Below, piece by piece: positions 1,468 to 22,000 of a stretch of 64,000 nt of DNA (within the stretch, counting starts at the first letter, position 1; each line of letters opens with the position of its first letter). The notes beneath the pieces are model-generated. The model did no database searches, was not told the origin of the DNA, and saw nothing but the letters and a program-made list of their open reading frames with translations. The position numbers and the translations under genes were made by a program. Origin of the DNA: Candidatus Cloacimonadota bacterium (GTDB lineage Bacteria; Cloacimonadota; Cloacimonadia; Cloacimonadales; JAIOQZ01); NCBI GenBank assembly GCA_021108395.1, contig JAIOQZ010000032.1:4575-68574 (forward strand), read 5' to 3'.

Positions 1468-3039
1468 ATGAAGAAAAAACTCGATATCACCGTGCTGATC
1501 GTTGAAGATGATCGCGAGATTCTCACCATCCTGTCCACCGTTCTTGGCGAGATTGTGCGTGAGGTCTGCACTGCGTACGACGGCATTCACGGGCTGGAGC
1601 TATACGAGGCGCATCAACCCGATATCCTCATCACCGATGTCAGGATGCCGCGTCTGGGCGGGCTCGAAATGATTCGCCAGATTCGCTATCTGAACGACAA
1701 CTGCAAGATTATCGTCATGTCGGCGTATCAGGAGACCAGCTTCTTTCTCGAAGCAATCGACATCGGCGTCGATGGTTTTCTTCTCAAGCCCATCCACATC
1801 GACAGGTTGACCTCGCTGGTCGAAGAGCTGGGCAATGTGACACAGCTCGAGCGCAAGCTTGCCCTCGAAGAGGAAGAGCTTCGGCGGGTAGAGGTTGAGT
1901 TGAGCCAAAGCGAGGCGCGCTATCATTCACTGTTCAGCTCGATGCAGGACGGCGTGATGCTGTTCCGGCTCGAAGGCGATGAACCGACTGTAACCATCAC
2001 CGACACCAATATTGCCTTTACTCGTCTCCTGAGCGAAACGTCATGCGAAGAACTTCCCCTGCTCGAGCTGGCCACCGAGTTGAGCAGAACCGGCAAAGCA
2101 GTCGTTGTCGAACGTTATTTATCAGATATCAACCGTCACTTTCGCATCAACCTGTTCCAGCCACAGGACGGCCTTTTCGCCGCTATCCTCACCGATCTCA
2201 CCGACCACAAGCGCATCGAGGAGCAAGTCCATGCGCTCAATCGTGGACTGGAGAAGCGGGTCGAGGAGGAGCTGCAAAAACGCCAGGAGCAACAGCGGCT
2301 GCTTATTCAGAAGAGCAAGCTCGAATCACTGGGCATTCTGGCGGCAGGCGTTGCGCACGAAGTGAATCAGCCGCTCACACGCATTTCGCTGGGTCTGGGC
2401 AACATCGCTTTCAAGAGCCAGCGCGGCAAGCTCAGCGGCGCCTACATCGAGGAGAAGTGCGAAACGCTGCTGGGCGATGTCGAACGCATCAAGACCATCA
2501 TCGATCACATTAAGACCTTCTCGCGTGAACAGAAATCCGACCTGTTCGAGCGGGTGGACATCAACAAGGTGGTGCACGCTTCAATGCTGCTGGTGCAGAA
2601 CCAGTATCGCAATCACGGCATCGAACTGGTGACGGAACTGGCCGAGTCTGTCGAGCCGACCATCGGCAACCCATACCGGCTCGAGCAGGTTGTGCTCAAT
2701 TTGTTGTCCAATGCCCGGGACGCGGTCGAAGAACGAACAGAAGTGTCCGATGACAACTTCGTGCCGCGCATCGTATTGCGTACTGTCCAGGAGACAGGTG
2801 TGGTGTGCGTCGAGGTGGAGGACAACGGTATTGGCATTCCCGCCGACGATCTGGAAATGATTTTCGAGCCGTTTTTCACTCGCAAGGACACCAATCGCGG
2901 CACAGGACTGGGGCTGTCCATCAGCTATGGTATCGTGGGCGAGATGAAAGGCAGCATCGAAGCGCACAGCAGCCCCGGCGAAGGTACCCGTATGTGCGTG
3001 CGTCTGCCGGTGATTGACACAGGAGAGCAACCGCAATGA
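1468..3039 (+). CDS. Soluble hybrid sensor: REC-PAS-HisKA-HATPase histidine kinase
   Basis: N-terminal receiver (LIVEDD, ITDVRMP, LKP); H-box AHEVNQPL; N-box NLLSNARDA; G-boxes DNGIG and GTGLGL. ATG 1468 chosen as start. Confidence 0.9.
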   Translation: MKKKLDITVLIVEDDREILTILSTVLGEIVREVCTAYDGIHGLELYEAHQPDILITDVRMPRLGGLEMIRQIRYLNDNCKIIVMSAYQETSFFLEAIDIGVDGFLLKPIHIDRLTSLVEELGNVTQLERKLALEEEELRRVEVELSQSEARYHSLFSSMQDGVMLFRLEGDEPTVTITDTNIAFTRLLSETSCEELPLLELATELSRTGKAVVVERYLSDINRHFRINLFQPQDGLFAAILTDLTDHKRIEEQVHALNRGLEKRVEEELQKRQEQQRLLIQKSKLESLGILAAGVAHEVNQPLTRISLGLGNIAFKSQRGKLSGAYIEEKCETLLGDVERIKTIIDHIKTFSREQKSDLFERVDINKVVHASMLLVQNQYRNHGIELVTELAESVEPTIGNPYRLEQVVLNLLSNARDAVEERTEVSDDNFVPRIVLRTVQETGVVCVEVEDNGIGIPADDLEMIFEPFFTRKDTNRGTGLGLSISYGIVGEMKGSIEAHSSPGEGTRMCVRLPVIDTGEQPQ

Positions 3040-4406
3040 TGCAGATACTCATTGTTGACGACGAAGCCGGCATTCGCGCCGAGCTTACCGAATTCCTCTG
3101 CGAGCATGATTTCGAGGTATATGCCGCCGCTACGCCGTCGGAAGCCTTCGAGCAGCTCGAAAGGCGCGAGATCGACCTGGTTATCCTCGACATACGCCTT
3201 CCCCAGATGGACGGCCTCGAAGTGCTGCGCCGCATCAGAGATGCCTGGCCGGCACTCGAGGTTATCATGATTACCGGTCATGGCGACCAAGAGAACATCC
3301 TGCAATCCATGCGTCTGGGCGCATTCGATTTCTTCATCAAGCCCTTCCGCGTCGCCGACATCCATCACGCCATTCAACGCACCAGTCGTTTCATCGAGTT
3401 GCACCAGCGGCTGCACGACGTAGAGCGCACCTACAGCCTCATCAACCATGAGTTACAGGCAAGGATTGGCGCCGATCTCATTGGCCGCAGCAACGCCATC
3501 CACCAGGTTATCGAGCAGATGCACCAGATTACCGGCGCTGACGATACGCCAGTGCTCATTACGGGTGAGACCGGCACCGGCAAGGAGCTTGTGGCGCGCG
3601 GGATTCACTATTTGTCGTCACGCCGCGAGCGATATTTCTATCCGGTCAATTGCTCGGCCATTCCCGAGAGCCTGTTCGAGAGCGAGTTTTTCGGGCATCG
3701 AAAGGGCGCTTTCACCGGCGCTCTCGAAGACAAGGCCGGCTGGTTCGAGGTGGCTCATCGGGGCACGCTGTTTCTCGACGAGATTGGCGACATGCCGCCG
3801 GCGCTGCAATCCAAGCTGCTGCGTGTGCTCGAAGACCGCATGGTGCGCCGCATCGGCTCTACCCGTGAAGTACCGTTCGACACGCGTGTCATCTCGGCCA
3901 CCAACCAGAACGTCGAGGCGCTCGTCGCCGACAAGAAATTCCGTCTCGATCTCTACCACCGCCTCAATACTTTTCACATCCACATTCCGCCCCTGAGAGA
4001 GAGGCCCGAAGACATACCGGTTCTGGTCGAGCACTTTCTCACAGACTTCGCTCGCAAGTTGCGCAAGCCGGTACAGGCCATCGCTGAGGACGTGCTCGAC
4101 GCGCTCTGCGCCTATCCGTTCGCCGGCAACGTGCGCGAACTGCGCAACCTCGTCGAGCGGGCAGTCATCATTTGTGAAGGCGATACGCTGAACCGCAGGC
4201 ACTTCCCTGACATGCCGGGGGGAGCGCCGTCAGTCGCCGCCACAGCCGAGGCGCCGAACGAAACGCTCGACCTTACGAAGATCGAGCGCCAGACCATTCT
4301 CAAAGCTTTGCGCCGCACCGACGGCAATAAAGCGCAGGCAGCGGAATTGTTAGGCCTCTCCTGGAACGCTCTCGACCGCCGCATGAAGAAATACGAGCTG
4401 AGTTAA
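3036..4406 (+). CDS. NtrC-family sigma54-dependent response regulator (REC-AAA+-Fis HTH)
   Basis: GETGTGKE Walker A, GAFTGA loop, LFLDEIGD Walker B, GNVRELRN, C-terminal NKAQAAELLG HTH. ATGA overlap with the upstream kinase. Confidence 0.95.
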   Translation: MMQILIVDDEAGIRAELTEFLCEHDFEVYAAATPSEAFEQLERREIDLVILDIRLPQMDGLEVLRRIRDAWPALEVIMITGHGDQENILQSMRLGAFDFFIKPFRVADIHHAIQRTSRFIELHQRLHDVERTYSLINHELQARIGADLIGRSNAIHQVIEQMHQITGADDTPVLITGETGTGKELVARGIHYLSSRRERYFYPVNCSAIPESLFESEFFGHRKGAFTGALEDKAGWFEVAHRGTLFLDEIGDMPPALQSKLLRVLEDRMVRRIGSTREVPFDTRVISATNQNVEALVADKKFRLDLYHRLNTFHIHIPPLRERPEDIPVLVEHFLTDFARKLRKPVQAIAEDVLDALCAYPFAGNVRELRNLVERAVIICEGDTLNRRHFPDMPGGAPSVAATAEAPNETLDLTKIERQTILKALRRTDGNKAQAAELLGLSWNALDRRMKKYELS

Positions 4407-4409
4407 GAG

Positions 4410-4633: not shown

Positions 4634-4650
4634 TTGGCATGGTTCTTGTT
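4634..4650 (+). promoter_or_regulatory. Putative sigma54 (-24/-12) promoter
   Basis: TTGGCATGGTTCTTGTT: good -24 element and correct spacing, but -12 is TTGT rather than TTGC. 37 nt before ATG 4687, downstream of an NtrC-type gene. Confidence 0.5.

Positions 4651-5036: not shown

Positions 5037-5040
<4 letters not shown>
4687..5040 (+). CDS. Single-domain atypical receiver (REC-like) protein
   Basis: MNILIVS...IDVAVLD...SDLGLLKYI CheY-like pattern, preceded by GAGG. The longer ORF start at 4435 lies inside the repeat. Confidence 0.7.
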
Positions 5041-7371
<2,331 letters not shown>

Positions 7372-7379
<8 letters not shown>

Positions 7380-8559
7380 CAAGCTCGACAAAGCGCGCAT
7401 TCTGCTGGTGGATGACGTCCCTGCCAACATCAAGGTTGCCGGTAATATATTGCGACACGAGGACTACAAGGTGGTGTTCGCCACCAGCGGACGCGAAGCG
7501 CTCGAACGCCTCGGCGAAAGCCGGTTCGACCTCGTGCTGCTCGATATCATGATGCCGGAGGTGGACGGCTTCGAGGTTTGTCGCCAGCTCAAGCTGGATG
7601 AAACCACCCGCGACATCCCGGTCATCTTTCTCACCGCGAAGCTGGATACAGAGAGCATTCTCAAGGCCTACAACATCGGAGGCCAGGACTTTGTCACCAA
7701 GCCGTTCAACGAGAGCGAATTGCTGGCGCGCATCAGGGCGCACCTCGACCTGAAACGCAGCCATGAGCGTCTGCGGACGCTCAACTGCGAGCTCGAGCTG
7801 GAGGTGGGCACGCGGAAAAAGGTGGAAAAGAAGCTCCGCCAGGCACAGGCAAAGGTGCGAAAGACCAACTCGGAACTCGAAAAGCGGGTGAAACAGCGTA
7901 CGAGCGAGCTGGAAAAGGAGATAGAAGACCGCAAGAAAGCCCAGGAGGCTCAGCGACAGAGCTATGAGAAACTGAACAGCATTATGGACGACATCATCCT
8001 CACCATGGCGCGGCTCGTCGAGATACGCGACCCATATACGGCGGGGCATCAGCAGAGGGTGGCCGATCTGGCTGTGGCCATTGCCACCAAGATGAACCTC
8101 TCGAAGGATGAAATCGACGGCATACGCGCTGCCGGAATCGTGCATGACATCGGCAAGATGTACGTTCCAGGCGAGCTTCTCACCCGCCCGGGCAAGCTCG
8201 AGGAATTCGAGTTCAAGGTGTTGCAGGCGCATGCCGCCAAAGGTTCCTATATTCTGCGATCGATCGATTTTCCCTGGCCTGTCGCCGACATGGTGGGCCA
8301 GCATCACGAGCGGCTGGACGGCAGCGGCTATCCGGAAGGGCTGGCCGGTGATGAAATCTTGCAGGGGGCGCGCATTCTGGCAGTAGCCGATGTTGTCGAG
8401 GCAATCAGCTCGCATCGTCCCTACCGCGCGGCGCTGGGCATTGACGTTGCGCTTGCGGAAATCCGAAAAAACGCGGGCAAACATTTCGAGGTGGCCGTGG
8501 TTTCTGTTTGTTGCGAATTGTTTGAGAATAATGAGTTTAGCTTCGATAGGATGAGTTAG
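7372..8559 (+). CDS. Response regulator with HD-GYP cyclic-di-GMP phosphodiesterase domain (RpfG-like)
   Basis: REC domain, coiled coil, HDIGK, HHERLDGSGYP, RPYR. Confidence 0.93.
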
Positions 8560-8653
8560 GCAAGAGTCAGTTCATTGTCGCTAATTACTTGTTTTTGCGA
8601 AAATTGCTTGCCTAAAAAACGCCGTTATACCGAATTATGTCATAAGGTGAATT

Positions 8654-9544
8654 ATGCAACACACACACAATGGCGCAGACACAGGGCAAAAAATGTCACT
8701 GCAAGACCTTATTGAGCAGGTAAACAAGTCCGACATCGGATCGCTCCGGCAGAATGTCGTGCGCATCCTGTCGCTTGTGCACAATCCCGCCACGTCTGCT
8801 CATGAGTTGAGCGACCTTATTCAGACAGACCCACCATTGTGCTCGCGCATTCTTCGCGTGGCCAACTCTGCATTTTACGGCTCGCAGCGCCATGTCGGCG
8901 CCATCCGGCAAGCGATTATCTGGCTGGGGTTCAATACAGTCAAAGAGCTTGCGTTGAGCCAGAAGGTGTTCGAGCTGTTTCAGAACGGCAATGGCCTCGC
9001 TGATTTCTCGCTGAAGAATCTGTGGAACCACAGCATGCTGGTGGCTGTGGGCAGCAAGCTCGTCTATCGCCGCGAGTTTGTCCTGAGTGGCGAAGAAGCC
9101 TTCACTGCCGGCCTGTTACATGAACTGGGGCTCATCATCGAGGCGCAGTTCTGCAAAGAGGTCTTTGCCTATGACCTGATACATCAGCATAAGGGCAACA
9201 TGCGTCAGCTTGAGGACGCTATCCTGGGATACAACCACTGCGACATCGGTGGCGCCCTGGCCAAGGCCTGGGAATTTCCTGACTTCATCTCCTCAAGCAT
9301 CAAGTATCATCACACGCCGGAACTGAGCCCGGAGAGGGGCCGTCGGCTGGTGCAGACCGTCTTCATCGCTGATACACTCGCTACACGCATCTATAAAGAG
9401 TTCAACGACGAGCCGGCGGAAAACAAGGCCACTTTCGATGCCTGCATGAGAGACCTTTCAATTGAGTCCGAGGCGCTGGATTTGCTGGCGAAAGAACTGG
9501 AGAAGGAACGTCAGATACTCGTCGAGAAGGGACTGATGCTATAG
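8654..9544 (+). CDS. HDOD domain protein
   Basis: DPPLCSRILRVANSAFYG, AFTAGLLHELG, HCDIGGALAKAWEFP...HH. Confidence 0.9.
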   Translation: MQHTHNGADTGQKMSLQDLIEQVNKSDIGSLRQNVVRILSLVHNPATSAHELSDLIQTDPPLCSRILRVANSAFYGSQRHVGAIRQAIIWLGFNTVKELALSQKVFELFQNGNGLADFSLKNLWNHSMLVAVGSKLVYRREFVLSGEEAFTAGLLHELGLIIEAQFCKEVFAYDLIHQHKGNMRQLEDAILGYNHCDIGGALAKAWEFPDFISSSIKYHHTPELSPERGRRLVQTVFIADTLATRIYKEFNDEPAENKATFDACMRDLSIESEALDLLAKELEKERQILVEKGLML

Positions 9545-9612
9545 CTGTTTCACGACATGCCGGACTAATTGACTGTTTGAGCGCTACGCTGCTATTGGGG
9601 GACACACGGCAG

Positions 9613-10899
9613 ATGAACACCGATCAAAACCAGAAGCTTCAACAACGCATCAAAGAACTTGAAATCGAGTTGCGTCATCTGCGCAACGATTATGACCTGA
9701 CGCGCCGTGAGGTCGATGTCGCCAAGGGTAATTTTCTCGATATGCTCAAGAGCCTCGAAGACATCAACGTCGAGTTGGCGGACAGAAACGCGAAAATCGA
9801 GCAGCAGAAAGCCGAGATCGACAACCAGTACCGCCTCTTTCGCACTCTGCTTGACGAAATACCCAACCCCGTGTTCTACGAAGACGCTCAGGGGAATTAT
9901 CTCGGATGCAACAAAGCTTTCTGCCAGGCTCTGGGCATCACGTCCGACAAGGTCGAGGGCAAGACGGCGTATGAGATTTTCCCGCGGCACGATGCCGAAC
10001 TGCATCATCGCATGGACGACAAGCTCATTCGCCAGGGCGGCATTCTGCATTACGAAACCTGCATTCTCTTTGCAGACGGCCTCGACCATGACATTGTCAT
10101 TAGCAAGGCCGCTTACCTCGACGCAGGCGGGCGCATTCTGGGCATCGTGGCCGTGTGCAGCGATGTCACTCAGAGTAAGCGCAACGAACTCGAGCTGCGC
10201 CAGTCTAATCGCGCCAAAGACAAGTTCTTCTCTATCATCAGCCATGACATGAAAAACCCGCTCAACGCGCTCATGCTCACCACCGAGTTCCTACAGGACA
10301 ACCACCAGGATCTTACGAAATCCAAGGTGGAAGATATGCTTGGCAATGTCCACAATTCGGCCAAGCGCCTCAATGCGTTACTGAGCAATCTGCTACAGTG
10401 GGCGCGGTCACAGTCTGGCCGCATCCCCCACGAGCCCACCCACCTCGATCTGTATAATCTGGTGGAGCAGATTATCTCACTTGCCGCCAGCACGGCTCGA
10501 GAGAAAAGCATCGAATTGGCGAGCGACATACCTCGCGGGATGTTCATATATGCCGACCGCCAAATGCTGATGACCGTGCTGCGAAATCTGGTGTCTAACG
10601 CTGTGAAATTTACTCAGCCCGAAGGCAAGGTGCTTGTGAATGCCATTCTGCTGGACGACTGGGTGGAAATCACTGTGGCCGACAACGGCATTGGCCTTTC
10701 CAAAGCCGACATCGACAAGCTGTTTCGCATCGATGTTCACTATAGCACAAAAGGCACGAGCCGCGAGACCGGCACGGGGCTGGGATTGATTTTATGCTTC
10801 GAGTTTGTAGAGCGGCAGGGGGGCGAAATAAAGGTGTTCAGTGAGGTGGGCAAGGGCAGTACGTTCCGAGTTCGTCTGCCCCGTCAAGATGCCGACTGA
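9613..10899 (+). CDS. Coiled-coil/PAS sensor histidine kinase
   Basis: PAS (YLGCNKAF), KDKFFSIISHDMKNPL H-box, NLVSNAVKFT, GTGLGL. Confidence 0.92.
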   Translation: MNTDQNQKLQQRIKELEIELRHLRNDYDLTRREVDVAKGNFLDMLKSLEDINVELADRNAKIEQQKAEIDNQYRLFRTLLDEIPNPVFYEDAQGNYLGCNKAFCQALGITSDKVEGKTAYEIFPRHDAELHHRMDDKLIRQGGILHYETCILFADGLDHDIVISKAAYLDAGGRILGIVAVCSDVTQSKRNELELRQSNRAKDKFFSIISHDMKNPLNALMLTTEFLQDNHQDLTKSKVEDMLGNVHNSAKRLNALLSNLLQWARSQSGRIPHEPTHLDLYNLVEQIISLAASTAREKSIELASDIPRGMFIYADRQMLMTVLRNLVSNAVKFTQPEGKVLVNAILLDDWVEITVADNGIGLSKADIDKLFRIDVHYSTKGTSRETGTGLGLILCFEFVERQGGEIKVFSEVGKGSTFRVRLPRQDAD

Positions 10900-10908
10900 C
10901 GATCTGGG

Positions 10909-11613
10909 CTATCCCCTGATCTTTGTCTTGATTTCCTTCAACATATCCATTCCGAATCGACGAATGATGGCGCGCAGTTCTTCCTCGCTGATTTCATCTC
11001 CCACGATGTCACGGAAAATAAGAAAAAGCCTGTCTTCAATTGTCATTTCCTGTTGTGGCGGCAGAGATACCATCGGCGTACTGAGGCGGCGACGCACCTT
11101 CTTGCCCAGACGCAGTTTCAGCTCCTCGATAGTGAAGCTGTGCGGGTCTGTTACCAGTCGGCCTGTGGCCTGCATGCGGTCGCGGGAATCACATTCGCGT
11201 CCCAGCAGCAGCAGCTTGGTAATGCCGATGCGATCATAGATGTCTTCGACCTCATCCATGCGGGAGCGGCTGCTCAGGATGTTGCTCAGATCGGTGCTGT
11301 AGCGCTGTTCGAGGTAGTCTGTAATCACATAGAGCGCTTTTTCTATGCGATAGCAGTGATGTATTCCTCGGGGCGAAATGCGCCGCAGATATTCCTTCAA
11401 TGTCACCTGGCCCTGGGTGGCCTCGAAGATGCCTTCCTGCTTCCACTTGATGCGAAGCCACATATAGTCAAAGGCAATCGCCAGAGAGTTGTCGCGGTAT
11501 TGTTTATCTAACCTGGACAACCTGGTCTCAACGTTCTGAACCGATATCGGACGGCCTGGACCCTCGAAGAAGGCAGGATTGATGTCATCTGCTCGCGGTG
11601 TACTTGAATACAT
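10909..11613 (-). CDS. Hypothetical protein, possibly DUF3102-like helical DNA-binding protein
   Basis: 234-aa ORF with GGAGG RBS, 16 nt after the preceding gene. 'TLKEYLRRISPRGIHHCYRIEK...IGITKLLLL' resembles the DUF3102-type pattern by eye. Confidence 0.6.
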   Translation of the reverse strand: MYSSTPRADDINPAFFEGPGRPISVQNVETRLSRLDKQYRDNSLAIAFDYMWLRIKWKQEGIFEATQGQVTLKEYLRRISPRGIHHCYRIEKALYVITDYLEQRYSTDLSNILSSRSRMDEVEDIYDRIGITKLLLLGRECDSRDRMQATGRLVTDPHSFTIEELKLRLGKKVRRRLSTPMVSLPPQQEMTIEDRLFLIFRDIVGDEISEEELRAIIRRFGMDMLKEIKTKIRG

Positions 11614-11629
11614 AGTTCCTCCCGTCTGT

Positions 11630-12076
11630 TTACAGTGCGCTTCGAATGAAAACCATCACTACGAGGAATAAAATCATGGCGACAGTGAGCACCAGCCACA
11701 ATGTCAGGTCGGCACGGCGCTGAGGCAGCGTTTGCAGCTCGTCTCCCGATTCTACCAGAGGATGCTTGCGTCGGTGGATGTATCCTGAAACCTCCATCGC
11801 GTGATGGAAGCGTTCCGGTGAGAAGTTATCGATCAGGTCGTCCATAAGCAGGGCGAGGTAATTGTTGTCCCACACCGAGCGATTTTGCAGGAGTTGTTCG
11901 CCCTCGTGCCGCTGCACCACCTTCGGGCAGCGACTGCGAGCGATTTCAAATGCCTCGACCACCGCGTTATTCTCATTCAGCGGGTATTTGTCGATGAACG
12001 AGGTTAGGTGCGACTTGACACTAATCATGTCGCGCTCGTTCAGAGCTTGCTCGAGGCGTTCTTCCAGGCTCATCAT
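11630..12076 (-). CDS. Tail-anchored membrane protein, dynamin partner
   Basis: ATG at 12076 directly follows the dynamin stop. Soluble helical domain (HEGE...WDNNYL...NFSPER) and a C-terminal hydrophobic helix LWLVLTVAMILFLVVMVFI. Confidence 0.75.
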   Translation of the reverse strand: MMSLEERLEQALNERDMISVKSHLTSFIDKYPLNENNAVVEAFEIARSRCPKVVQRHEGEQLLQNRSVWDNNYLALLMDDLIDNFSPERFHHAMEVSGYIHRRKHPLVESGDELQTLPQRRADLTLWLVLTVAMILFLVVMVFIRSAL

Positions 12077-12078
12077 GG

Positions 12079-14325
12079 TTAAACATCCAGAATATTCTGC
12101 AGTCTCTGCTGGATGTTGGCCAGCCATTCCTGCTGATCACGGCTTCTGTCGATTTCTTTGGCGAGGCTTTCCTGATCTTTGGTGAAGCGCCGCATTTGAG
12201 TGATTTTATCGAGCAGCAGGCTACGGAATTGCTCCTGCTTGGCCATGAACTCTTCCTTCAGCGCTTCAATAGCGGATTCCAACCGCTTTTCGGTTATCTC
12301 GATGTTCTTGTAGAAATTCTGTTTCACCGGCGAGGTGAAGTTGTCGATGAGAAGATTCACATCGATGCGCCTTACTTCCTTGTGTCCCACTACCTCTTCC
12401 CGATAGGCTCCATCGAGCACGATCTTGGGGTTGAGCAGCGAACGCCGGATGTATGCGTACTGCGTTTCCTTGAATCGTCGGGTGGAATCGGTGACCAGGT
12501 TCGCCGCCTCGGGCAGATTGATGGTGAAGCTCTTGAGCAGGTCGGCTTGCAAATCCACATCGAGATGCGTGTTGGTGTCGAAGAGCTCGCGTAGATAGGC
12601 AGCGTAGCCTCGCAACAGATCCTGGGCTTCGCCCAGTACGCCATGCACGAAGGCCGTCTCGAGCTCCAGTTTAATCTCGCTCTCAAAGTAGGAGATGCGC
12701 CTGCGGGCGTCTTCGATGATGCTGCGCGCTTCCTCGAACGAAATCTCGTTGTGGCCCAGGAACATATCTATTATCGAGCTGATGAGCTTGGGTATGCGGC
12801 GGCGCAGCTCCTTTAGCGTACTGCGGTCGATCTGCAGCGAATTGATCGCCTCCTCGAATCGCGCCGCGTCTTTGCCGCGCTCCAGAATGCTCTCGATGTC
12901 GGTGATGGCTTGGTCGAGTTCCTCGCGTTCCTTTTGGTTCGCATGCAGCCGAGATTGCAGCTTGCCCTCGATTTCCTTGTCATCGAGGATGCGACGAAAC
13001 GTTTGCATGGCCGCGTAAAACTTGGCCGGCACGGCATACTTGTGCAGGTATTCGTTGATGGCCACCTCGATACTGGGCAGTCCCGAGTGGAAAAGCAGCT
13101 TGGCGTCGGGGTCGTCACCAGCGCCCTCGAACAGGATGTCCAGTTCTTCCTGGGCGGTGCGAGACAGCGGAGCATATTGCATGAAGTTCATCTGCGGGTA
13201 CTTGCCGATGACCTTCTGGAACTTGAGCATCTCGAACTCCTCCATACCGATGTCCATGCCCTTTTGCTGCATTCTGGCGAGCTTGGCGATGAGCGCCGAC
13301 AGCGGGAACACGTTGGGGTTTCTGATGCCCTTCTCTTCGAGGTACAGGCGTGTTTGCTCGAGAATGTAGGGGATGTCTTCCTTGGCGGGATTGAAGTTGT
13401 CGAGGCGGTTGACCGCGAAGAGGATGCGGTCGGAGAGCTGCTTGTCTTTGCCTTTCATGCTCTGGGCGACTGTGTCCAGCAGCATCGAGTCGTCGTTGAT
13501 GCCGAACTGCGTGCCGTTGATGATATATAGCACCATCGGCTTCATTTCACTCTTGATGAAACGGATGGTGTCTTCGCGGTGAAGCTTGTTCAAAGCGTTG
13601 TTGGGGCCGGGGGTATCCACCAGAACCAGCCGCATATACTCGCTGCTGATGTTGTGGATGTCGCCCTCGATTTCGATGGTCGAGACATCCTCGCGGGCGT
13701 TGTAGTCGGCGATTTCATCGGGGCCGACATGCGCCCAGTCTTCGATCACGTTTTCGTTCGTGTCAAGGGCGCGGGCGCGATATTCGCCCGCCTCGATATC
13801 GCAGTCGCGGATGCGGCTGATGGTGGCGGTGCAGGCCATGTTTTTCACAGGCATCATCTCGAGACCGAGCATGGCGTTGATGAGGGTGGACTTACCAGAA
13901 CTCATCGTTGCCAGCACGGCAATCTCGAATTCGGAGTTGAGCGCCTTTTCGAATGCCTCGCGCATCTCGCGTCCCCGAAGCTCCGGGAACGGCCCCTGCT
14001 GAAGGTCGGAAAACAGGTTTCGCAGTTCATTCTCCTGAGTTTCCACTTCCCGCCCTTCGTAGAAAACCAGCTCCACATGGCACTTGTGACGAGCCTTGTA
14101 CAGCTCCACCTGCTCGGCCAGGTCTTCCATGTCGAGGCGGCGACCGTGGAATTCGAGACGGAAATCATTGGCGCCAGTCACCTCGGCGAGAGCCGGCAGG
14201 AGGTCTGCCACAAACGCTTGCAGGCGTTGATTGGCGAGGGCTTCGGGCAGCTCGGTCGGAGTTCCGTTGATCTTGACAAACGTCTCGATTGTGAAAGGGT
14301 TGTGCTTCATGTACACTGTGTTCAT
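12079..14325 (-). CDS. Bacterial dynamin-like GTPase (Dynamin_N family)
   Basis: G1 ATMSSGKST, G2 ACTA, G3 DTPG, G4 NRLD, followed by a long helical/coiled-coil stalk; GGAGGAG RBS. Confidence 0.9.
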   Translation of the reverse strand: MNTVYMKHNPFTIETFVKINGTPTELPEALANQRLQAFVADLLPALAEVTGANDFRLEFHGRRLDMEDLAEQVELYKARHKCHVELVFYEGREVETQENELRNLFSDLQQGPFPELRGREMREAFEKALNSEFEIAVLATMSSGKSTLINAMLGLEMMPVKNMACTATISRIRDCDIEAGEYRARALDTNENVIEDWAHVGPDEIADYNAREDVSTIEIEGDIHNISSEYMRLVLVDTPGPNNALNKLHREDTIRFIKSEMKPMVLYIINGTQFGINDDSMLLDTVAQSMKGKDKQLSDRILFAVNRLDNFNPAKEDIPYILEQTRLYLEEKGIRNPNVFPLSALIAKLARMQQKGMDIGMEEFEMLKFQKVIGKYPQMNFMQYAPLSRTAQEELDILFEGAGDDPDAKLLFHSGLPSIEVAINEYLHKYAVPAKFYAAMQTFRRILDDKEIEGKLQSRLHANQKEREELDQAITDIESILERGKDAARFEEAINSLQIDRSTLKELRRRIPKLISSIIDMFLGHNEISFEEARSIIEDARRRISYFESEIKLELETAFVHGVLGEAQDLLRGYAAYLRELFDTNTHLDVDLQADLLKSFTINLPEAANLVTDSTRRFKETQYAYIRRSLLNPKIVLDGAYREEVVGHKEVRRIDVNLLIDNFTSPVKQNFYKNIEITEKRLESAIEALKEEFMAKQEQFRSLLLDKITQMRRFTKDQESLAKEIDRSRDQQEWLANIQQRLQNILDV

Positions 14326-14355
14326 GCGTGTCTCCTCCCTCGGCTGACGCCGGGA

Positions 14356-14685
14356 CTAAACTTCAAACGGGCCAAAGTCTCGGGTGAATGGGTATATCGA
14401 GACCCGCTTGCCCTGCAGGAAGTCGGCTTTCTTGAAAAGCTTGCTCTTGAAGATTACCTGATCGTTGCGGTGCAAAACGAAGTAGATGTTGGGGCGCAGG
14501 CGTTGCAGCGTCTCCAGGTTCGATACAATCGCCACCTGGCCTTCCTCGCCCAGCTCCTCGGTATTGATCAGGCTGCTCTGAAATCCGGTTTTATGGAACA
14601 CCTCGACCCAGAAGGTCGGGCCAACCAGAGGCTTCCCGGTGTTCTTGTCCACGAACGTGGCCTGGATGATGATTTCCTGTTCCAT
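14356..14685 (-). CDS. Hypothetical protein, possible transthyretin/carboxypeptidase-regulatory-like beta-sandwich
   Basis: 109 aa with GGAGG RBS; pattern VDKNTGKPL...G.V.I...PNIYFVL. First gene of the dynamin operon. Confidence 0.65.
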   Translation of the reverse strand: MEQEIIIQATFVDKNTGKPLVGPTFWVEVFHKTGFQSSLINTEELGEEGQVAIVSNLETLQRLRPNIYFVLHRNDQVIFKSKLFKKADFLQGKRVSIYPFTRDFGPFEV

Positions 14686-14719
14686 GGGGTTCCTCCACAG
14701 TCGAGTTTACATAAGTATA

Positions 14720-14736
14720 TACAAGAGTTGTGCCAA
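14720..14736 (-). promoter_or_regulatory. Putative sigma54 promoter of the dynamin operon
   Basis: Minus strand TTGGCACAACTCTTGTA: perfect -24 TTGGCAC, -12 TTGT; 35 nt before the ATG. Confidence 0.55.
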
Positions 14737-14912
14737 TCGATGCCTGGCGGCCTAAGCGCTGCTCATACAACAATATGGCTCACAGAGTCCTGGGCGCGGC
14801 GATTGAAACTGAACCTTCGTTTGCGAAGGTGTCTGCGATTCCGAAGATTGTGTCGGCAGACGCTGCACAGAAATGTTGACAGCTTTTCCGGCTCACGCTT
14901 GTGTGGCATTGT

Positions 14913-14989
14913 GCCCCCGTAGCTCAGCTGGATAGAGCGCTACCCTCCGGAGGTAGAAGTCACGTGTTCGAATCGCGTCGGGGGTGCCA
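14913..14989 (+). tRNA. tRNA-Arg(CCG)
   Basis: Acceptor stem GCCCCCG/CGGGGGT, D-arm AGCTCAGCTGGATAGAGC, anticodon arm CTACC-CTCCGGA-GGTAG, TTCGAAT T-loop, encoded CCA. Confidence 0.97.
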
Positions 14990-15050
14990 TTATTCGATGA
15001 TATGCCGCAAAGCGGCAATATTAACGACAGTTAAGAAATAGGCTTCACAG

Positions 15051-15087
15051 AGCCACCCTGACTGCCCGTCGGGGTGGCTATTTTTTT
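15051..15087 (+). terminator. Rho-independent terminator after the tRNA
   Basis: AGCCACCCTGAC-tgccc-GTCGGGGTGGCT followed by ATTTTTTT. Confidence 0.85.
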
Positions 15088-15113
15088 GCACCCACTGTCA
15101 TTATGGAGGTGAT

Positions 15114-16007
15114 ATGACTCGAATGCTGTTGATTCTACTCGCCGCTATCCTCGTACTGTCTGCTTGCTCCAGCAGGGACGACCGACTGGCGCTGGGCATT
15201 ATCCGGCCATCGTTGAACCACCTGCCGGTGCAGGTGGCGCTACGGCAGAGTTTTCTGAGCGCGGATGACGTCGATATTCGTCCGCTGGCCACCGGCTGGG
15301 AGACAGGCGAAGCGCTGGCCGCCGGGCGGCTCGACATGGCGGTGATGCCGTTCACATACGCCTGGCGCAGCGCGGCAGCGGGCATGGACGTGCGCATCGT
15401 GTCGTTCCTCGAACGCGAGAGCAACGGCCTGCTGGCGCGCCCCGGCCTCGACAGCCTGCCTGCGCTGGACGGCGCCCGCGTGGGTGTGCTGCGAGCTTCC
15501 ACCCTCGAACTGCTGGCCGCCATGGCCGCCACCGACCTCGGCCTGCGCCTTGAACCAGTGCCTCTGCGCTCTCCTGGCGAGATGTTAGTGGCCCTGCGTA
15601 GTGGCGAGGTGGATGCAGTCAGCTATTATGTACCGCCCATTCTGGTTGAAGGCCGCGAACCGCTGCTGTGGTACGGCAGCCTTTACCCGATGCATCCCTG
15701 CTGCGACATCGCCGCGCATACCGTTGCGCTCGATGAGAAACGGGCGCAGGTCGAGCGGGTGCTGGACGCCATCGAGCAGGCGGTGGACTGGATGAGCGAG
15801 CATCCCGCCGAGACAGCCGCCATCGCTGCCGAGGTGTATGGCCTTGAACCGCAAATGGCCGCCGAAGCCCTGCGTCACGTTCACTACCGCACGGGGTTGG
15901 ATGCCGCCGGCATGACATTCGAGCGGCGGGCGGTGGAGATGCTGCTGGCGCAGGATGAAATCGAACGTATCGACGGCTTCGAGATATATCATGCGCCTGG
16001 GCGGTAG
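15114..16007 (+). CDS. ABC transporter substrate-binding lipoprotein, NitT/TauT/SsuA family
   Basis: Lipobox LSAC, ALAAGRLD, HPCC motif; GGAGG RBS. Confidence 0.85.
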   Translation: MTRMLLILLAAILVLSACSSRDDRLALGIIRPSLNHLPVQVALRQSFLSADDVDIRPLATGWETGEALAAGRLDMAVMPFTYAWRSAAAGMDVRIVSFLERESNGLLARPGLDSLPALDGARVGVLRASTLELLAAMAATDLGLRLEPVPLRSPGEMLVALRSGEVDAVSYYVPPILVEGREPLLWYGSLYPMHPCCDIAAHTVALDEKRAQVERVLDAIEQAVDWMSEHPAETAAIAAEVYGLEPQMAAEALRHVHYRTGLDAAGMTFERRAVEMLLAQDEIERIDGFEIYHAPGR

Positions 16008-16707
16008 CCTCGCGGGTTTCATCGCGTTGCCGCCGCTGGCGCTGCTGCTGGCGGTCAGCCTCGATGTGCCGCTGGTCAATGTATGGTCGGCGCTGCTGAG
16101 GCTGCCGGCGCTACTGCCGGACTTTTTCGCCACCCTTGCCCGAGTGACGCTTGTGGCGCTGGGGGCGTGGCTGGCGGCGATGGCGTTTGCTCGCCTGCTG
16201 TCGCTGGCGCCGGTCGCCTGGTCATTGACGCAGCCGCTGGTGCAGTTCGCGCGGCATGTGTCGCCCTTCGCCTGGTTTCCGTTCGCCATAATCTGGTTCG
16301 GACTGGGTGAAGCGCCGGCGGTGTTCGTGCTGTTCGTCGCTCTGTTCTTTCCGGCATTGGTGGCGGCGCGTACCACGCTCGAGGGGCTGCCGGTCGTGTA
16401 CATCGAGGAGGCGCGGGTGTCTGGAGCCACCGAGTGGCAGATTGCGTTGCGCGTGGAGCTGCCGCTGCTGGCCGGGCCGCTGTTGGGATTGCTGCGAGTA
16501 TTGTGGGGTCTTGGCTGGACGGCCGGCATTGCCGTGGAGATGCTGGGTGTGCGCAACGGGATGGGCTTTCGCCTGCTCGACTTCCGCTACCTGCAACAGC
16601 ATGACAACATGATTGCCACCCTGCTGGTGATGGGCTTCGCCGGACTTCTCGTTGACCTGCTGTTGCGAATGTTAGAAGAACGCTTCGCCGCTACGGCTAC
16701 TCAGTAG
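15991..16707 (+). CDS. ABC transporter permease, NitT/TauT (SsuC-like)
   Basis: SPFAWFPFAIIWFGLGE, EAARVSGA-type loop (EEARVSGA), GMGF; multiple TM helices. Confidence 0.88.
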   Translation: MRLGGSLAGFIALPPLALLLAVSLDVPLVNVWSALLRLPALLPDFFATLARVTLVALGAWLAAMAFARLLSLAPVAWSLTQPLVQFARHVSPFAWFPFAIIWFGLGEAPAVFVLFVALFFPALVAARTTLEGLPVVYIEEARVSGATEWQIALRVELPLLAGPLLGLLRVLWGLGWTAGIAVEMLGVRNGMGFRLLDFRYLQQHDNMIATLLVMGFAGLLVDLLLRMLEERFAATATQ

Positions 16708-18319
16708 CGTTTAGCTGCGGCAGCCAGACACGCAAGCGGGTGCCCTTGCCCGGTTCGCTGTCAATATCGAAGCATCCTCCGTGCCGCTCGATGATGCCAT
16801 ACACCGTTGACAGACCAAGGCCTGTGCCTTTGCCTTCTTCTTTGGTGGTGAAGAACGGCTCGAACACTCTCTTACGTGTTTCTTCATTCATGCCTTCGCC
16901 ATCATCCTCCACCTCGATCCAGAAATGGCAACCCCCATCCAGCGATTTTCCTAACGGACACTTGCCCTGTACGAGCACGGCGCTGCCAGTGCGTACATAG
17001 ATGTTACCCTTTCCATGAATGGCGTCACAGGCATTGATGATCAGGTTCATCAGAATCTGGCGCATCTGGCCGGGATCGGCGCTCACCATGATGGGTTCTG
17101 GCCACAGCTCGATGTGCGGCGTTATCTGCTTGTCCAGCAGACTTCGCAGCATCGCCTCAATGTCGGAGACCACATCATTGAGGTCGATAATGTCGTGTTC
17201 CAACTTCTGCTTGCGGCTGAAGAGCAGGAGCTGGTGAGTCAAACTGACAGCGTGGTCCACAGCCTTTTCGATCGCGGAAAGAAGGTGAGCCTGGTTCTCG
17301 CAGTCGGATGATAGTTGCATCAGGCCTACCGACCCGCTGATGATTGTCAGGATGTTGTTGAAATCATGGGCGACCCCGCTGGCCAGGCTGCCCAGCGCTT
17401 CCATCTTCTGCGATTGGATGAACTGCTCCTGTAGTTTGAGTTGCTCGGTGATGTCGGTCATTACGCCGAAGGCGCCGATGTAGATGTCATCATCATCGAG
17501 GCGGGGATAGGCAGATACGCTCAGGTATTTCGTGTTTCCCGCCGGGGTGGTTATGCGTAGCTGGTATGTCGAAGTTTCGTTCTTGCAGCGAATGAGCGTT
17601 TCTTGCTGCACCCTGCAAAATTCTTTCTCATCGAGAAACTGTGACAAGTTACATCCCGTCAGCTTGTCTTTCTCAGTCTCAAAGATACGGCTCATGGCCG
17701 GATTGACATATATCAATGTTTCATTTGTATCAACTATGCCGATGCCCTCGTGAATGCGATTAAAAACATAATCGAGCAATTCGCGCTGCTCTGAAATCGC
17801 GGATACCAGATCCGTCTGCATAGTGCGGTTTTCCTGCTCTGCCAGCCACTTCGTGCTCAACGCCAGGGCAAATTGGCGAATCTCCTGAGGATGAAACGGC
17901 TTGAGAACGAACAGCAGCCGGTCGCTGGGCGGAATGCGCCGGACCATGTCGTTTGTGTCCGTGTCGGAATGGGCGGTACCGATGATGATATGCAAGTACG
18001 GATCGATGACCCTGATCTGTTCTGCCGCCCAGATACCGTCGGGCCCAGGCGGCATCCTCACATCGATGATGGCCAGGGTGAACGGCCGCCCTTCGAGCGC
18101 GGCCTGCTCCACTTGCGTTATCCCGCTGGAGGCGTCGTGCGCCTCAACTACCTCGTACACGAACTCAGGCTCGGTTTGGGCGTCTGAGTCGCTGAACAAA
18201 CGGCTCTTTGTGTCTTGCGCGTTATGCTTACGGATTGTTGTCGTCAACGCTCGGCTGACCACTGTGCATACTATGGGATCGTCATCGATGACGAGGATTC
18301 GGATGGTTTTGTCACCCAT
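16697..18319 (-). CDS. Hybrid histidine kinase REC-PAS-HisKA-HATPase
   Basis: IIDVRMPPGPDG receiver, PAS, QSQKMEALGSLASGVAHDFNN, FEPFFTTKEEGKGTGLGL. Confidence 0.92.
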   Translation of the reverse strand: MGDKTIRILVIDDDPIVCTVVSRALTTTIRKHNAQDTKSRLFSDSDAQTEPEFVYEVVEAHDASSGITQVEQAALEGRPFTLAIIDVRMPPGPDGIWAAEQIRVIDPYLHIIIGTAHSDTDTNDMVRRIPPSDRLLFVLKPFHPQEIRQFALALSTKWLAEQENRTMQTDLVSAISEQRELLDYVFNRIHEGIGIVDTNETLIYVNPAMSRIFETEKDKLTGCNLSQFLDEKEFCRVQQETLIRCKNETSTYQLRITTPAGNTKYLSVSAYPRLDDDDIYIGAFGVMTDITEQLKLQEQFIQSQKMEALGSLASGVAHDFNNILTIISGSVGLMQLSSDCENQAHLLSAIEKAVDHAVSLTHQLLLFSRKQKLEHDIIDLNDVVSDIEAMLRSLLDKQITPHIELWPEPIMVSADPGQMRQILMNLIINACDAIHGKGNIYVRTGSAVLVQGKCPLGKSLDGGCHFWIEVEDDGEGMNEETRKRVFEPFFTTKEEGKGTGLGLSTVYGIIERHGGCFDIDSEPGKGTRLRVWLPQLNATE

Positions 18320-18590
18320 TATACCGTCCTACTTCAGTTTGAATCAGAATCAATATTAGAGCCATCGAACTGTGCTCGCGCTCCATCTTCCGATAGTATT
18401 TCTATTCTTCAGAAGATTGGTGACAAAAAGATAATCCGAAAAACCAGATAGGCAATCCCGGAAATTGCGGCTCACGGCGAGACGCGATGAAGGTGATATC
18501 GGACTGAAGTGAGTGGTGGCTGGCAGAATTCGCTTGTGCATCATACGCCTGACAACATGATTGACGCCATCAGCTTTCGCAGGAGAGACA

Positions 18591-18842
18591 ATGCGACCCA
18601 TCGAGCGCAAGATATTCAACAAGATAGGCGAGAAAGGGATTACGTTAGACGGTGTCGAGGAGATTCTCGACCGTATCGACCGCACCGAGAAGAAAAAGAG
18701 CTTTCCCGACGAGAGCCACTTCCAGAGCGACCGCTACTTTGCGAAAATCATCATCGACAGCCTGCTACGGCGCAAACTTATTCGCCGCGAGGGCAGCCGC
18801 TTCATCCGCCCCGACAAAGAGAAGAAAGACACTGATGAATGA
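18591..18842 (+). CDS. Small basic hypothetical protein (83 aa), possibly winged-helix
   Basis: AGGAGA RBS before ATG 18591; helical pattern ending IIDSLLRRKLIRREGSRF. Confidence 0.6.
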   Translation: MRPIERKIFNKIGEKGITLDGVEEILDRIDRTEKKKSFPDESHFQSDRYFAKIIIDSLLRRKLIRREGSRFIRPDKEKKDTDE

Positions 18843-19025
18843 CAGGGGTTCCACCCCTGAACCCCGCCAAACTTTTTTAAAAAGTTTGGATCAAAAACTC
18901 TTGCGGAAACTTCGTTTCCTATGTACAAAAAATATTTTAATGACACAAGGATGCGTAGCATCCGTAAACGTTTTCGGTTTCGCCTTTTACAAAAGGCGAA
19001 CGGGGTGTCAGGGGCAGCGCCCCTG
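18843..19025. repeat. Modular hairpin repeat family, full copy B (two inverted half-units)
   Basis: Six hairpins with ends caggggttccacccctg and caggggcagcgcccctg; colinear with the reverse complement of 63165-63413; lies between convergent genes. Confidence 0.85.
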
Positions 19026-19043
19026 CTCTTAGCGCCCCTGTTC

Positions 19044-22000
19044 TTATTTAAGCAGCGCCATTCGCCGCGTGAGACTACGCCCGTCTGTCTGGAGTCTCAG
19101 CAGGTAGATTCCGCTGGCCATGCCGGTGGCGTCCCATGTCAACGTGTGCTCGCCGACATCGAAGCGTTCATCGGCGAGAACGGTCACACGGCGACCACGC
19201 ACGTCAAACACTTCCAGCCGCGCCGTGCCTGCCTGCGCCAGACTGAACTGCACAGTCGTGCTGGGATTGAACGGGTTGGGCGTGTTGGGCAGCAGCGCCG
19301 TGACGGGCGCAGGCGGCGTCTCGTCGGCGGACAGCGGGTCGAGCACGTTCGAGATGGCCGCCTCGGAGCTTTCGCCCCACCAGTAGTCGGCGGTGACGGC
19401 AAACTGCGTCTGTTCGCTGAGTGTGATGTCGAGTATGGCGTAAGCGGCCGTTACTGCGGTAAACAATTCCGTCCACAGTTCCGGGTCGCCGACATCGTCA
19501 GGGGCGAACATCCAGCCGGTGAATCCCTCCGGATCGATCTGTGCGTCTCCGGGCATCGTCCACTGTAGAATCACGTCGTCGCTGGTGGTGTAAGCGGCTG
19601 TGAGGGTGGTGGGAGCATAGGCGAACACGCCCAGAGTGAAATCGACAGTCGTCATCTCGCCGGCGGTTACTGATACTGCTCCGACAGTCTCTTCCAGCCA
19701 GCCATTCTTGTTGGCGCGCATGGTGTAGGTTCCCTGGGGCACGGCGCTGAACAGGTAGTCGCCGTCGGGGTCACTGGTGGCGGTGGCGCCCAGTTCGAGA
19801 ATCTCGATGAGCGCGCCGCTGTCGTCGGTCGTCTCGGCCAGATCAACCACGCCGGATATCTGCCCGGCGTCGGCCCAGCTGACGAGGTGAAGCTGGTCGG
19901 GGCTGGGGGTGCAGGCGAGAGCCTTGGGACCCTCGTCGCGCCACACGAACCAGGCCGCGCCCGGCGTCTCGACCTCGTCGGCGCCGTAGTGCAGGGAGTT
20001 TGCGCCCAGCACAATGGGATTGCCGGCGGCATCGTAGCGCAGCATATAGAGATAGCTCTCGTTGGCCGAGTAATCGTAAACGACGCTCTGCGCCCCGCTG
20101 GGAAGCGCGTACTCGATTACCTTTGCGTCGTTGCACACCACCACGCCGATGTCGCCGGTGACGGGGTTGGTGGCGCAGCGGAAAGGCTTGTCGCCGGGAT
20201 TGATCGTGCCGATTACCTGCGAGGCGGCGCCGTCGATCTCGCAAATGGTCGCCGTGTTGCCGAAGCAGTTTGTCACCAGGGCGTACTGGCCGTCTGGAGT
20301 GAACGCGGCCTTGAGCGGGAAGTCGCCGGTGGGCAGACTGGCCACCACCTGCATCGCGTTCGTGTCGATGACCTTGACCTGGTCGTCGAAGCTGGCGCAC
20401 ACCAGCAGGCAACTGCCATCTGGCGAAAGCTCGATGCCGCTGAACGTGCCGTAGCAGGTGTAGACGACGCCGATGACGCCGCAGGGGATTTGCGCCAACT
20501 CGCTGCTGGCCGCGCCGTTCATGTCGATCACCGAGATCGTGTTGCCCTGGATGTTGGCCACATAGGCGCGGCTGCCGTCTGCCGACATCGTCAAATTGAA
20601 CGGTCGCTGGCCCACGTCGATGGTGGCGGCGACGGAGTAGTCGGACAGGTCGATGATATAGACCAGGCCGTCGGAATATTCGGTCATATAGCTGAAGGCG
20701 GTGACGACTGCCCAGTCGCCGTCGGGGGTGACTGCCACGTCACGCGGCTCGACATCGAGCTGGACGACTTCTTCAACGTCGCCGGTGTTCATGTTCACCA
20801 CGCTCATGCTCGTGCCAATGGGACCGACCGCCAGGGCGTGGTTGCCGTCGGGCAGCAGAGCGAGGCGCAACGGCGTGTCGCCTTCGGGGACTTCACCGGC
20901 CAGGCTGCGGCCACAATAGGTAATGTCGCCGGTGTCGGTGAAGTCGAAGAAGGTGATGCCCTCGTAAACGCTGTGGTGGGCGACGATGCGGTTGTTCACC
21001 GGCGAGACCGCGCCGAAATCCTGCTGGATACCCCAACACTGTCCAATCACCGACTCGGTTTCCATGTCGATGAGAGAGAGGCGGTACTGGCCGCTGATGG
21101 CGATGGTGCGGTCGGCGTTCATGCCCAGCCAGAAGGCGGTGTATGTCTGGGAGAAGGTAGCGTAGTCCTGGGTGTCGAAGCGGGCGATGGCGCTCTGGTT
21201 GCCGCTGATGCCCACATAGGCTTTTGCCCCGTCCATAGTCACCCCGGCTTCGTAGTGACCGCTGATGGTTGCCCCGTCGAAGCTGACCGTGCCGGTGGCT
21301 GTCTGGCTCGCCAGGTCGATGCGATGGATGTGGGTGTTGCTCACAGCCACAAGCTGCGCGCCGTCGCCCGACAGATGCACCTTGCGGATGTCATCCAGCG
21401 CGACGGCGCCGGTCATCGTGCCGGTGGTGGTGTCCCAGAACTGCACCTGCGTGTCCCAATCGCCCACGGCCAGCGTGGTGTTGTCGGCCAGCGCCTCGAA
21501 GTTGGTGAACGAGTAGCCCGTGCGACCGGTGCCGAGGCTGCCCCAGAAGCCGTACAGCGCAATGTAGAAACCGTTGATGCTGGAGGTGTGAGTGAGCGTG
21601 GCGAGGTCGATGACTTCGAGCACGTCGTCGATGTCGCAGGCGACGTAGGCCCAGTTACCGTCGGGGCTCACCCGCACGACGACGGGTTGCTCGGCGGTAG
21701 CGAACGTGGCGGCCACCGAATAGTCGTCCAGGTCGATGACATAGACCTCGTCGGAGAAGGTGCAGGGCACGACGGCGTAGTCGTCGGTCACGGCGATGTC
21801 GCGGGGGAACTCGCCTACGGGGATGTTGGCCAGCGGTTGCATGGTTGACCAGTCGTACACCGTGACCATGTCGGAAAGCCTGCTGGTGAGCAGTACGCGG
21901 TCGCCGTCGGAGGTGAAGGCGACTCCGCCGGTGTAGTCGCCCTCCGGCGCTATGCCCGGGTCAATGAGTGCCAGCTCGTAGCGCAGTTGGGGCAGTTGGT

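Follow-up and report, generated by a model that had tools for sequence, protein, structure and literature searches.

A putatively sigma-54-linked dynamin operon of Cloacimonadota, probably reduced from a dynamin–ATPase–toxin–immunity cassette

Here we describe a four-gene operon encoding a dynamin-like GTPase in a 64,000-nucleotide stretch of a Candidatus Cloacimonadota genome (contig JAIOQZ010000032.1, positions 4,575 to 68,574; hereafter, the window). On balance, we read the four genes as a reduced, lineage-specific form of a dynamin–ATPase–toxin–immunity cassette, working as a sigma-54-induced membrane-remodelling module; the case for what the genes are and where they come from is much stronger than that for their function. 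The genes (hereafter referred to as g1, dynamin, g3 and g4) are tightly packed on the minus strand with gaps of 30, 2 and 16 nucleotides (nt), and both coordinates and gaps reproduce those of the initial annotation, which had been made from the letters of the window:

14356-14685, minus strand: g1, 109 amino acids (aa)
12079-14325, minus strand: dynamin, 748 aa
11630-12076, minus strand: g3, 148 aa
10909-11613, minus strand: g4, 234 aa

The GC content of the operon, overall and at third codon positions (GC3), resembles that of the host genome. All four proteins stay below the NCBIfam cut-offs, and their best match to a defence profile (PADLOC 2.0.0) has an E value of only 0.0014.

The closest named relatives of the operon are in Cloacimonadota. 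Three of 40 related genomes carry operon genes, all from the same family as the genome of the window (G000). Two of them (G001 and G004, of another genus; the G004 assembly is a single contig, 98% complete) hold all four open reading frames (ORFs) intact and in the same order, at 36–53% identity to the window, and the third (G002) has a partial set on a short contig, its dynamin broken into two ORFs in the assembly. Conservation in more than one genus shows that the four-gene form is real, yet it is narrow, as the g4 and g1 profiles match only one family among the loci studied. The wider comparison comprises 81 loci, that is, the window and the best 80 of 461 related stretches obtained by an alignment scan of species-representative genomes; a single-protein scan of genome contigs returned no dynamin relatives, and the dynamin alignment had no match in viral contigs. 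Of these 81 loci, 74 contain a match to the g3 profile, 4 one to g4 and 3 one to g1, the g4 and g1 matches all falling in one Cloacimonadota family. The four-gene set is not supported as a general architecture, since outside that family only g3 accompanies the dynamin. The g3 family is itself patchy, occurring in 6 of 232 genomes of the phylum, and it was not found in 4 of the 7 other genomes of the family.

The dynamin matches Dynamin_N (E 1.3e-10; 42 bits against a cut-off of 27), and all four GTPase motifs could be located (G1 ATMSSGKST at 139, G2 Thr166, G3 DTPG at 237 and G4 NRLD at 306), so the GTPase is intact, as first described. G1 starts with Ala rather than Gly, and this Ala is invariant across 42 of 42 aligned relatives. 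The predicted structure (predicted local distance difference test (pLDDT) 80, predicted template modelling score 0.78) comprises an N-terminal alpha/beta domain of ~95 aa, the G domain, a helical stalk and a beta-hairpin tip, and the helical neck and trunk fold spans the full length of the protein in both the model and Foldseek, as in bacterial dynamin-like proteins. Full-length Foldseek matches are to SynDLP, BDLP, Campylobacter DLP, IniA and LeoA (E 6e-13 to 4e-9, identity 12–14%). SynDLP (Slr0869), Nostoc BDLP, Campylobacter DLP1/DLP2 and mycobacterial IniA (E 6e-13 to 3e-9) share with the window protein the full-length fold, profile matches, G1–G4 and the helical stalk with its tip. The window dynamin differs from them in its 12–14% identity, the extra N-terminal domain, the lack of a transmembrane helix and the dedicated tail-anchored partner, and in the linkage of its relatives with a HerA ATPase and toxins. 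It is not an equivalog of Bacillus subtilis DynA or Escherichia coli CrfC either (36 and 34 bits against NCBIfam cut-offs of 1600 and 1146). A hydropathy scan found no transmembrane helix in the dynamin, g1 or g4. The stalk tip, which likely contacts lipid, was placed from the model and a 42-protein alignment:

12361..12477, minus strand: loop and hairpin at the tip of the stalk, around residues 617-655

A W-x-x-P-W/F pattern is present at the tip of 26 of the 42 aligned proteins (a Trp-rich, KWYKPWTW-type tip). In the window dynamin the tip reads RRSLLNPKIVL, and such a basic-hydrophobic tip replaces the Trp-rich one in the clade of reduced forms described below.

g3 is composed of a helical N-terminal domain (conserved W69, N84-F85 and R89) and a C-terminal membrane anchor. 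The anchor, already assigned in the initial annotation, is a single C-terminal hydrophobic segment (mean hydropathy 3.08), the sole such segment among the four proteins, and 66 of 79 g3-family members have one. In 74 of the 76 loci with a called downstream cassette gene, the g3-family gene directly follows the dynamin; no anchor or ATPase was called after the dynamin in 5 of the 81 (L042, L064, L065, L068 and L086; contig ends or ORF filter). When modelled as a complex, the dynamin and g3 residues 1–112 scored 0.62 against 0.00 for the best of three controls, a score that 116 of 157 solved pairs and 2 of 215 mismatched ones attained in a calibration only roughly valid for our own alignments. 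Contact agreement between runs was at least 94% and partner pLDDT at least 85. The predicted interface involves dynamin stalk residues 505–523 and 656–676, beside the tip hairpin, and would therefore suit holding the tip at the membrane. As no named structural relative of g3 was found, the model is unlikely to have passed by reproducing an already solved complex. The modelling supports binding of g3 to the dynamin stalk and, together with the failure to find a second dynamin in G000, speaks for the proposed single dynamin with a tail-anchored partner. A PADLOC PDC-M15A label for g3 (E 0.0014, in 1 of 44 family members) was dropped.

In most other loci, this pair is part of a larger assembly, the parent cassette, with the usual order of a WYL gene, a short dynamin, a long dynamin, the tail anchor, a HerA/DUF87 ATPase, a variable nuclease toxin and a matching immunity gene. 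The second, usually shorter dynamin is immediately upstream in most loci. The ATPase, about 1030–1180 aa when whole, is present in 68 of 81 loci, and matches DUF87 at E 4e-14 and FtsK at only E 1e-5; a WYL protein is encoded in 37 of 81. Representatives of the toxin slot are WHH/colicin DNase, LHH and NS_2 nucleases, those of the immunity slot SUKH, YezG and DUF6985. Three nuclease clusters account for 40 of the 64 toxin-slot genes, and the next gene varies in step (WHH/SUKH 15, LHH/SUKH 8, WHH/DUF6985 8, NS_2/YezG 3, plus 7 for each of two unannotated pairs). The toxins are short (most 160–330 aa), and 27 of 62 carry an N-terminal leader motif, (A/L)(D/N)xP-hydrophobic, against 4 of 869 other proteins (2 of the 64 toxin-slot rows were dropped for this count). 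No Pfam match to WXG, LXG or RHS was found among 26 cluster representatives scanned. A fixed slot in which C-terminal toxin domains vary together with their immunity genes is how polymorphic-toxin systems are built (PMC3113570, PMC3482391), and the parent cassette has this layout. Its hosts are mostly Bacillota, with others in Spirochaetota, Bacteroidota, Pseudomonadota and other Cloacimonadota. Full cassettes in the same order lie on plasmids of Lactococcus cremoris (pF27B, NZ_CP068513.1, 589-11094; L152), E. coli (2767-11166; L153) and Bacillus (1903-11145; L154); L152 and L154 also have the WYL gene.

The cassette is widespread and apparently undescribed. No description was found in the literature searched, which did not cover supplements and most subscription journals; supplements on polymorphic toxins and lactococcal plasmids could list it. 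In the accessible parts of PMC3113570 and PMC3482391 the word 'dynamin' is not mentioned; the corresponding parts of PMC11381338 contain dynamin only as DynA, with no mention of pF27, WYL or DUF87, and those of PMC9424270 none of the cassette terms.

Several branches of the cassette depart from the usual layout. In a Lachnospiraceae-type branch (L039, L041, L045, L048, L050, L052 and L071; P0050, P0072, P0077 and P0083), the long dynamin is ~1000 aa with a TerD fusion by precomputed Pfam, more TerD-like genes follow the toxin–immunity pair, and the anchor protein mostly has no called transmembrane tail. The second dynamin has 3–5 predicted N-terminal transmembrane helices in L044, L047, L056, L058 and L061. 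Upstream of the dynamins in L100, L106, L108 and L111 are an extra toxin-like gene (papain-like Cys/His pattern) and a partner gene, one with the same leader motif. L066, L067 and L078, from two Cloacimonadota genomes and one labelled Gammaproteobacteria, form a near-identical full-cassette branch in which the anchor domain is doubled and no immunity gene was called after the toxin slot.

By comparison with the parent cassette, the window operon is stripped down. G000, G001 and G004 each give one dynamin match, with no second dynamin found, and no match to the cassette ATPase query; members of the toxin and immunity clusters gave nothing against G000 (tblastn), and none is in the operon. A cognate ATPase elsewhere in G000 was considered and dropped, the matches being weak and short, to DUF87, and none to the cassette ATPase; the HerA protein of G002 has 27% identity to the latter in the ATPase domain only. 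Quick trees of 49 of 80 and of 29 selected sequences (P0002 was included without gene context) place the reduced forms in one group, with a Shimodaira–Hasegawa-like approximate likelihood ratio test (SH-aLRT) support of 100, within a 96-supported set that includes full-cassette Bacillota dynamins. The short paralogues, taken as outgroup, fall outside that set, and two other Cloacimonadota (G010 and G061) have the full form on a separate branch. Because the reduced forms nest among full-cassette proteins, loss of cassette parts is the likelier direction of change. On gene content, the reduced form would also have gained two lineage-restricted genes, g1 and g4, and a conserved sigma-54-type promoter with an enhancer.

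That promoter, proposed in the initial annotation from its likeness to sigma-54 sites, is conserved in two related genomes. The elements discussed here are:

14721..14735, minus strand: sigma-54-type -24/-12 promoter TGGCAC-N5-TTGT, kept in G001 and G004
14816..14827, minus strand: inverted repeat TTCG-N4-CGAA, candidate site for a sigma-54 enhancer-binding protein, kept in G001 and G004
4635..4649, plus strand: second GT-variant sigma-54-type site, heading a convergent signalling run that ends in the HDOD and kinase genes
3036..4406, plus strand: NtrC-like sigma-54 activator that may regulate both promoters
8654..9544, plus strand: HDOD protein, best G000 counterpart of the HDOD gene after g4 in G001 and G004
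9577..10899, plus strand: PAS histidine kinase, convergent with g4 and 9 nt apart

The GG and the spacing of the operon promoter match GG-N10-GC, with GT in place of GC at -12. An inverted repeat, TTCG-N4-CGRA, stands ~90 nt upstream of it in G000, G001 and G004, and the composite of promoter and repeat, a pattern built from these three promoters, matches once in each genome. Both elements are retained between genomes of about 37% and 56% GC. G000 encodes rpoN and nine sigma-54 activator domains, and 14 of its 26 canonical sigma-54 sites precede genes. Of its 15 TTGT-variant sites, both gene-preceding ones fall in the window, at the operon and at 4635, just after the NtrC-like activator.

The genes that adjoin the operon are also shared. 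In G001 and G004, an HDOD gene starts 3 nt past g4 on the same strand and is followed by a GGDEF gene. The window HDOD protein matches this gene product at E 1e-57 (next paralogue, 5e-28), and the window PAS kinase resembles the GGDEF gene product of the G001 and G004 operons in its N-terminal coiled coil. The HDOD and sensor-coil orthologues are thus adjacent in all three genomes, and their same-strand placement in G001 and G004 but convergent placement in the window implies a local inversion.

The two accessory genes gained in this lineage gave fewer leads. g1 has no Pfam, NCBIfam or PADLOC match, and a PDB search with its profile returned nothing meaningful; 1 of 9 g1 homologues matches TTR-52 weakly (E 0.15), from which g1 may possibly be transthyretin-like. 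This match is the one result in favour of the beta-sandwich label that the initial annotation gave to g1. A metagenome scan gave a single 18-residue fragment, which was not used. In G001 and G004, g1 paralogues occur unlinked to the dynamin, so g1 looks like a recruited gene. In both genomes such paralogues lie immediately 3' of a ~1000-aa, probably secreted protein, and in G002 they are off the dynamin contig (L134 2775-6136; L027, L031 and L029). g4, which occupies the slot held by the ATPase, toxin and immunity genes in the full cassette, has 3 representatives among 1.84 billion proteins and is predicted to be all-helical (pLDDT 77, one of five models). Its top Foldseek matches are the DNA-binding domains of ParB, Spo0J and Noc, at a non-significant E of at least 0.79 and a template modelling score by query of at most 0.35. 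Its Atlas neighbours are mostly phage hypothetical proteins, with one cluster holding 13% DUF3102 members. The DUF3102-like identity first given to g4 is thus a weak lead at most: DUF3102 (PF11300) has no g4 match at E ≤ 0.1, no member in G000 or 150 other phylum genomes, and no gene found in 5 Bacillota genomes. g4 had no match in metagenome scans or in phage genomes (tblastn), nothing better than E 0.047 in PHROG and nothing at E ≤ 0.001 among viral folds. The similarities behind the DNA-binding role originally put forward are all below threshold; by sequence and model, DNA binding by g4 is plausible, as a weak lead.

Eleos (LeoA, LeoB and LeoC) is one of the closest known systems. It is a two-gene operon that requires both GTPases, and the accessible part of its description mentions no anchor, ATPase or toxin (10.1101/2022.05.11.491447). 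Tandem dynamin genes are also found in the parent cassette, of which one Bacillota homologue matches PADLOC LeoA (E 5e-16) and the N-terminal part of the ATPase matches LeoB (E 9e-7). Eleos has two consecutive dynamin genes, whereas the window genome has one dynamin match; the window dynamin has no Leo match at E ≤ 0.1, and 2 of its 42 relatives match LeoBC (best E 7e-7). Judged by its sequences, the window operon is not Eleos, and within PADLOC it matches no defined defence system, in line with the initial annotation. Type VIIb secretion (T7SSb; YueA/EssC, WXG/LXG toxins and SUKH), in which a HerA/FtsK pump exports polymorphic toxins, resembles the parent cassette in having an FtsK/HerA-superfamily ATPase beside variable nuclease domains and SUKH/YezG immunity. 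The parent cassette differs from it in the absence of WXG, LXG and RHS from its representatives, in its short toxins with a leader motif and DUF87-type ATPase, and in having dynamins and a tail anchor as fixed partners; the window copy is without any toxin part. Eukaryotic Drp1 is recruited by tail-anchored receptors such as Mff, and the logic is alike here, as a soluble dynamin is predicted to be bound at its stalk by a C-terminally anchored receptor, an analogy for which we saw no homology in g3. The phage-shock (Psp) regulon is driven by sigma-54 and has PspA/ESCRT-III as its remodeller. The window operon likewise has a sigma-54-type promoter before a probable membrane-remodelling protein, but none of its four genes matches a Psp family and its putative remodeller is a dynamin.

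We propose that an NtrC-type activator, perhaps that at 3036-4406, turns on the operon together with the HDOD and sensor genes. The helical domain of g3 would grip the dynamin stalk next to the hairpin tip and recruit the dynamin, which has no transmembrane helix of its own, tethering it at the cell membrane. GTP-driven polymerisation of the dynamin could then bend, tether or repair the membrane, and g4 might act as a DNA-binding regulator or coupling factor. In the parent cassette, the HerA/VirB4-type ATPase would recognise the short toxin leader, and the anchored dynamins would supply the membrane step for toxin release. As the core pair is kept without the other cassette parts (second dynamin, ATPase, toxin and immunity protein), the window unit is likely a membrane-remodelling module. 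Several observations weigh against this account. A lone long dynamin could be crippled, because Eleos needs both of its GTPases (10.1101/2022.05.11.491447, accessible part), and the Trp-rich tip is altered in the window protein. The trees come from quick searches, with SH-aLRT as their sole support measure, and the composition of the window protein is unusual; the complex score has a calibration that fits our own alignments only roughly; and the leads to the roles of g1 and g4 are weak. On the regulatory side, the -12 element is GT, which is non-canonical, in G000, G001 and G004, the upstream element common to both window promoters stands out only modestly (of 5000 random 80-mers, 59 reach its score), and in G001 and G004 the operon is far from the NtrC orthologues. 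Because that upstream similarity is modest and those orthologues are distant, we offer co-regulation of the two promoters as a hypothesis.

The initial annotation had raised an anti-phage module, which we retain as an unlikely rival. Dynamin and anchor would stabilise or disrupt the membrane upon infection, g4 would sense or bind phage DNA, and the parent cassette would serve abortive infection, with its nuclease active within the infected cell. DynA and Eleos are dynamins that give protection from phage (10.1101/2022.05.11.491447, accessible part), and the WYL genes, the patchy distribution of the cassette and the phage-derived Atlas neighbours of g4 point the same way. So do the flanks of the cassettes, where, without a background control, 12 of 135 sampled proteins (of 262 eligible) match PADLOC at E ≤ 1e-40 and 8 of these, in 7 loci, resemble real defence genes (Gabija, Hachiman, restriction, SoFic and PDC-S04). 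The window copy itself gives this idea no direct support: it has native GC and is surrounded by signalling and housekeeping genes, no defence gene being seen near it in window 1-20000, it has a sigma-54/enhancer promoter, and its proteins have no PADLOC match better than that given above. Moreover, the combination of swappable toxins and SUKH/YezG immunity is the one seen in interbacterial toxins, as far as the accessible parts of PMC3113570 and PMC3482391 go. For the parent cassette, interbacterial delivery fits these swappable pairs, and the WYL genes and some defence neighbours leave room for abortive infection.

The conserved HDOD and sensor genes could instead make this a six-gene signalling unit, in which dynamin and anchor form a membrane-state sensor or scaffold wired to HDOD and to the coiled-coil protein (kinase or diguanylate cyclase), and g4 regulates the output. 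The 3-nt junction in G001 and G004, the orthologous block that is inverted yet still adjacent in the window and the similar promoter variant heading both window operons speak for such a circuit, which we nevertheless consider quite improbable, given that the output domain differs (kinase versus GGDEF), that the block is on the opposite strand in the window and that the arrangement is seen in just three genomes of one family. It seems very improbable that the operon no longer has a function and is a relic left by decay of the toxin cassette. The missing partner dynamin and ATPase, the altered tip, the split dynamin of the G002 assembly and the patchiness of g3 within the family would all be expected of a relic, but the four ORFs are intact in two genomes of another genus, the GTPase motifs are invariant, GC3 is host-like, and promoter and enhancer are conserved. 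We prefer the reading of the operon as a probable sigma-54-induced membrane-remodelling module.

The role of most bacterial dynamins, and the route to their membrane site, is still an open question. In the family described here, the dynamin comes with a constant tail-anchored partner, for which a specific interface is predicted, and this pair is tied in most genomes to a motor ATPase and swappable nuclease–immunity pairs, a link that we did not find in the literature searched. We tentatively suggest that the parent cassette may be a new polymorphic-toxin delivery route, in which anchored dynamins would remodel or fuse membranes and a HerA-type motor would hand over short nucleases. The window operon might then be a toxin-free, domesticated dynamin under sigma-54 control that has a tail-anchored receptor of its own, and so a counterpart in bacteria of the eukaryotic dynamins that are recruited by receptors. 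The toxin-free window copy is a natural deletion that isolates the dynamin–receptor core, and the L152 cassette is a ready experimental model: with the full cassette on a dairy Lactococcus plasmid, toxin export and phage defence can be directly tested against each other.

Other candidates and neighbours in the window were of minor weight. Sigma-70 sites were dropped (3 found against 2.4 expected), as was integration of the operon at a tRNA-Arg gene, as the tRNA is directed away from the operon with its 3' end distal and GC is host-like (repeats were not searched). This tRNA-Arg(CCG) gene (14913-14989, plus strand) is divergent to the operon and is followed by a terminator (15051-15079). The canonical sigma-54 regulon of G000 (C1, C6, C16, C21 and C39) seems, by N-terminal sequences, to include flagellar-type genes. 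Window 1444-10899 forms a dense signalling cluster, encoding a receiver-kinase, the NtrC-like activator, a small receiver-like gene (about 4690-5040), a hybrid kinase, a receiver-HD domain protein, the HDOD protein and the PAS kinase.

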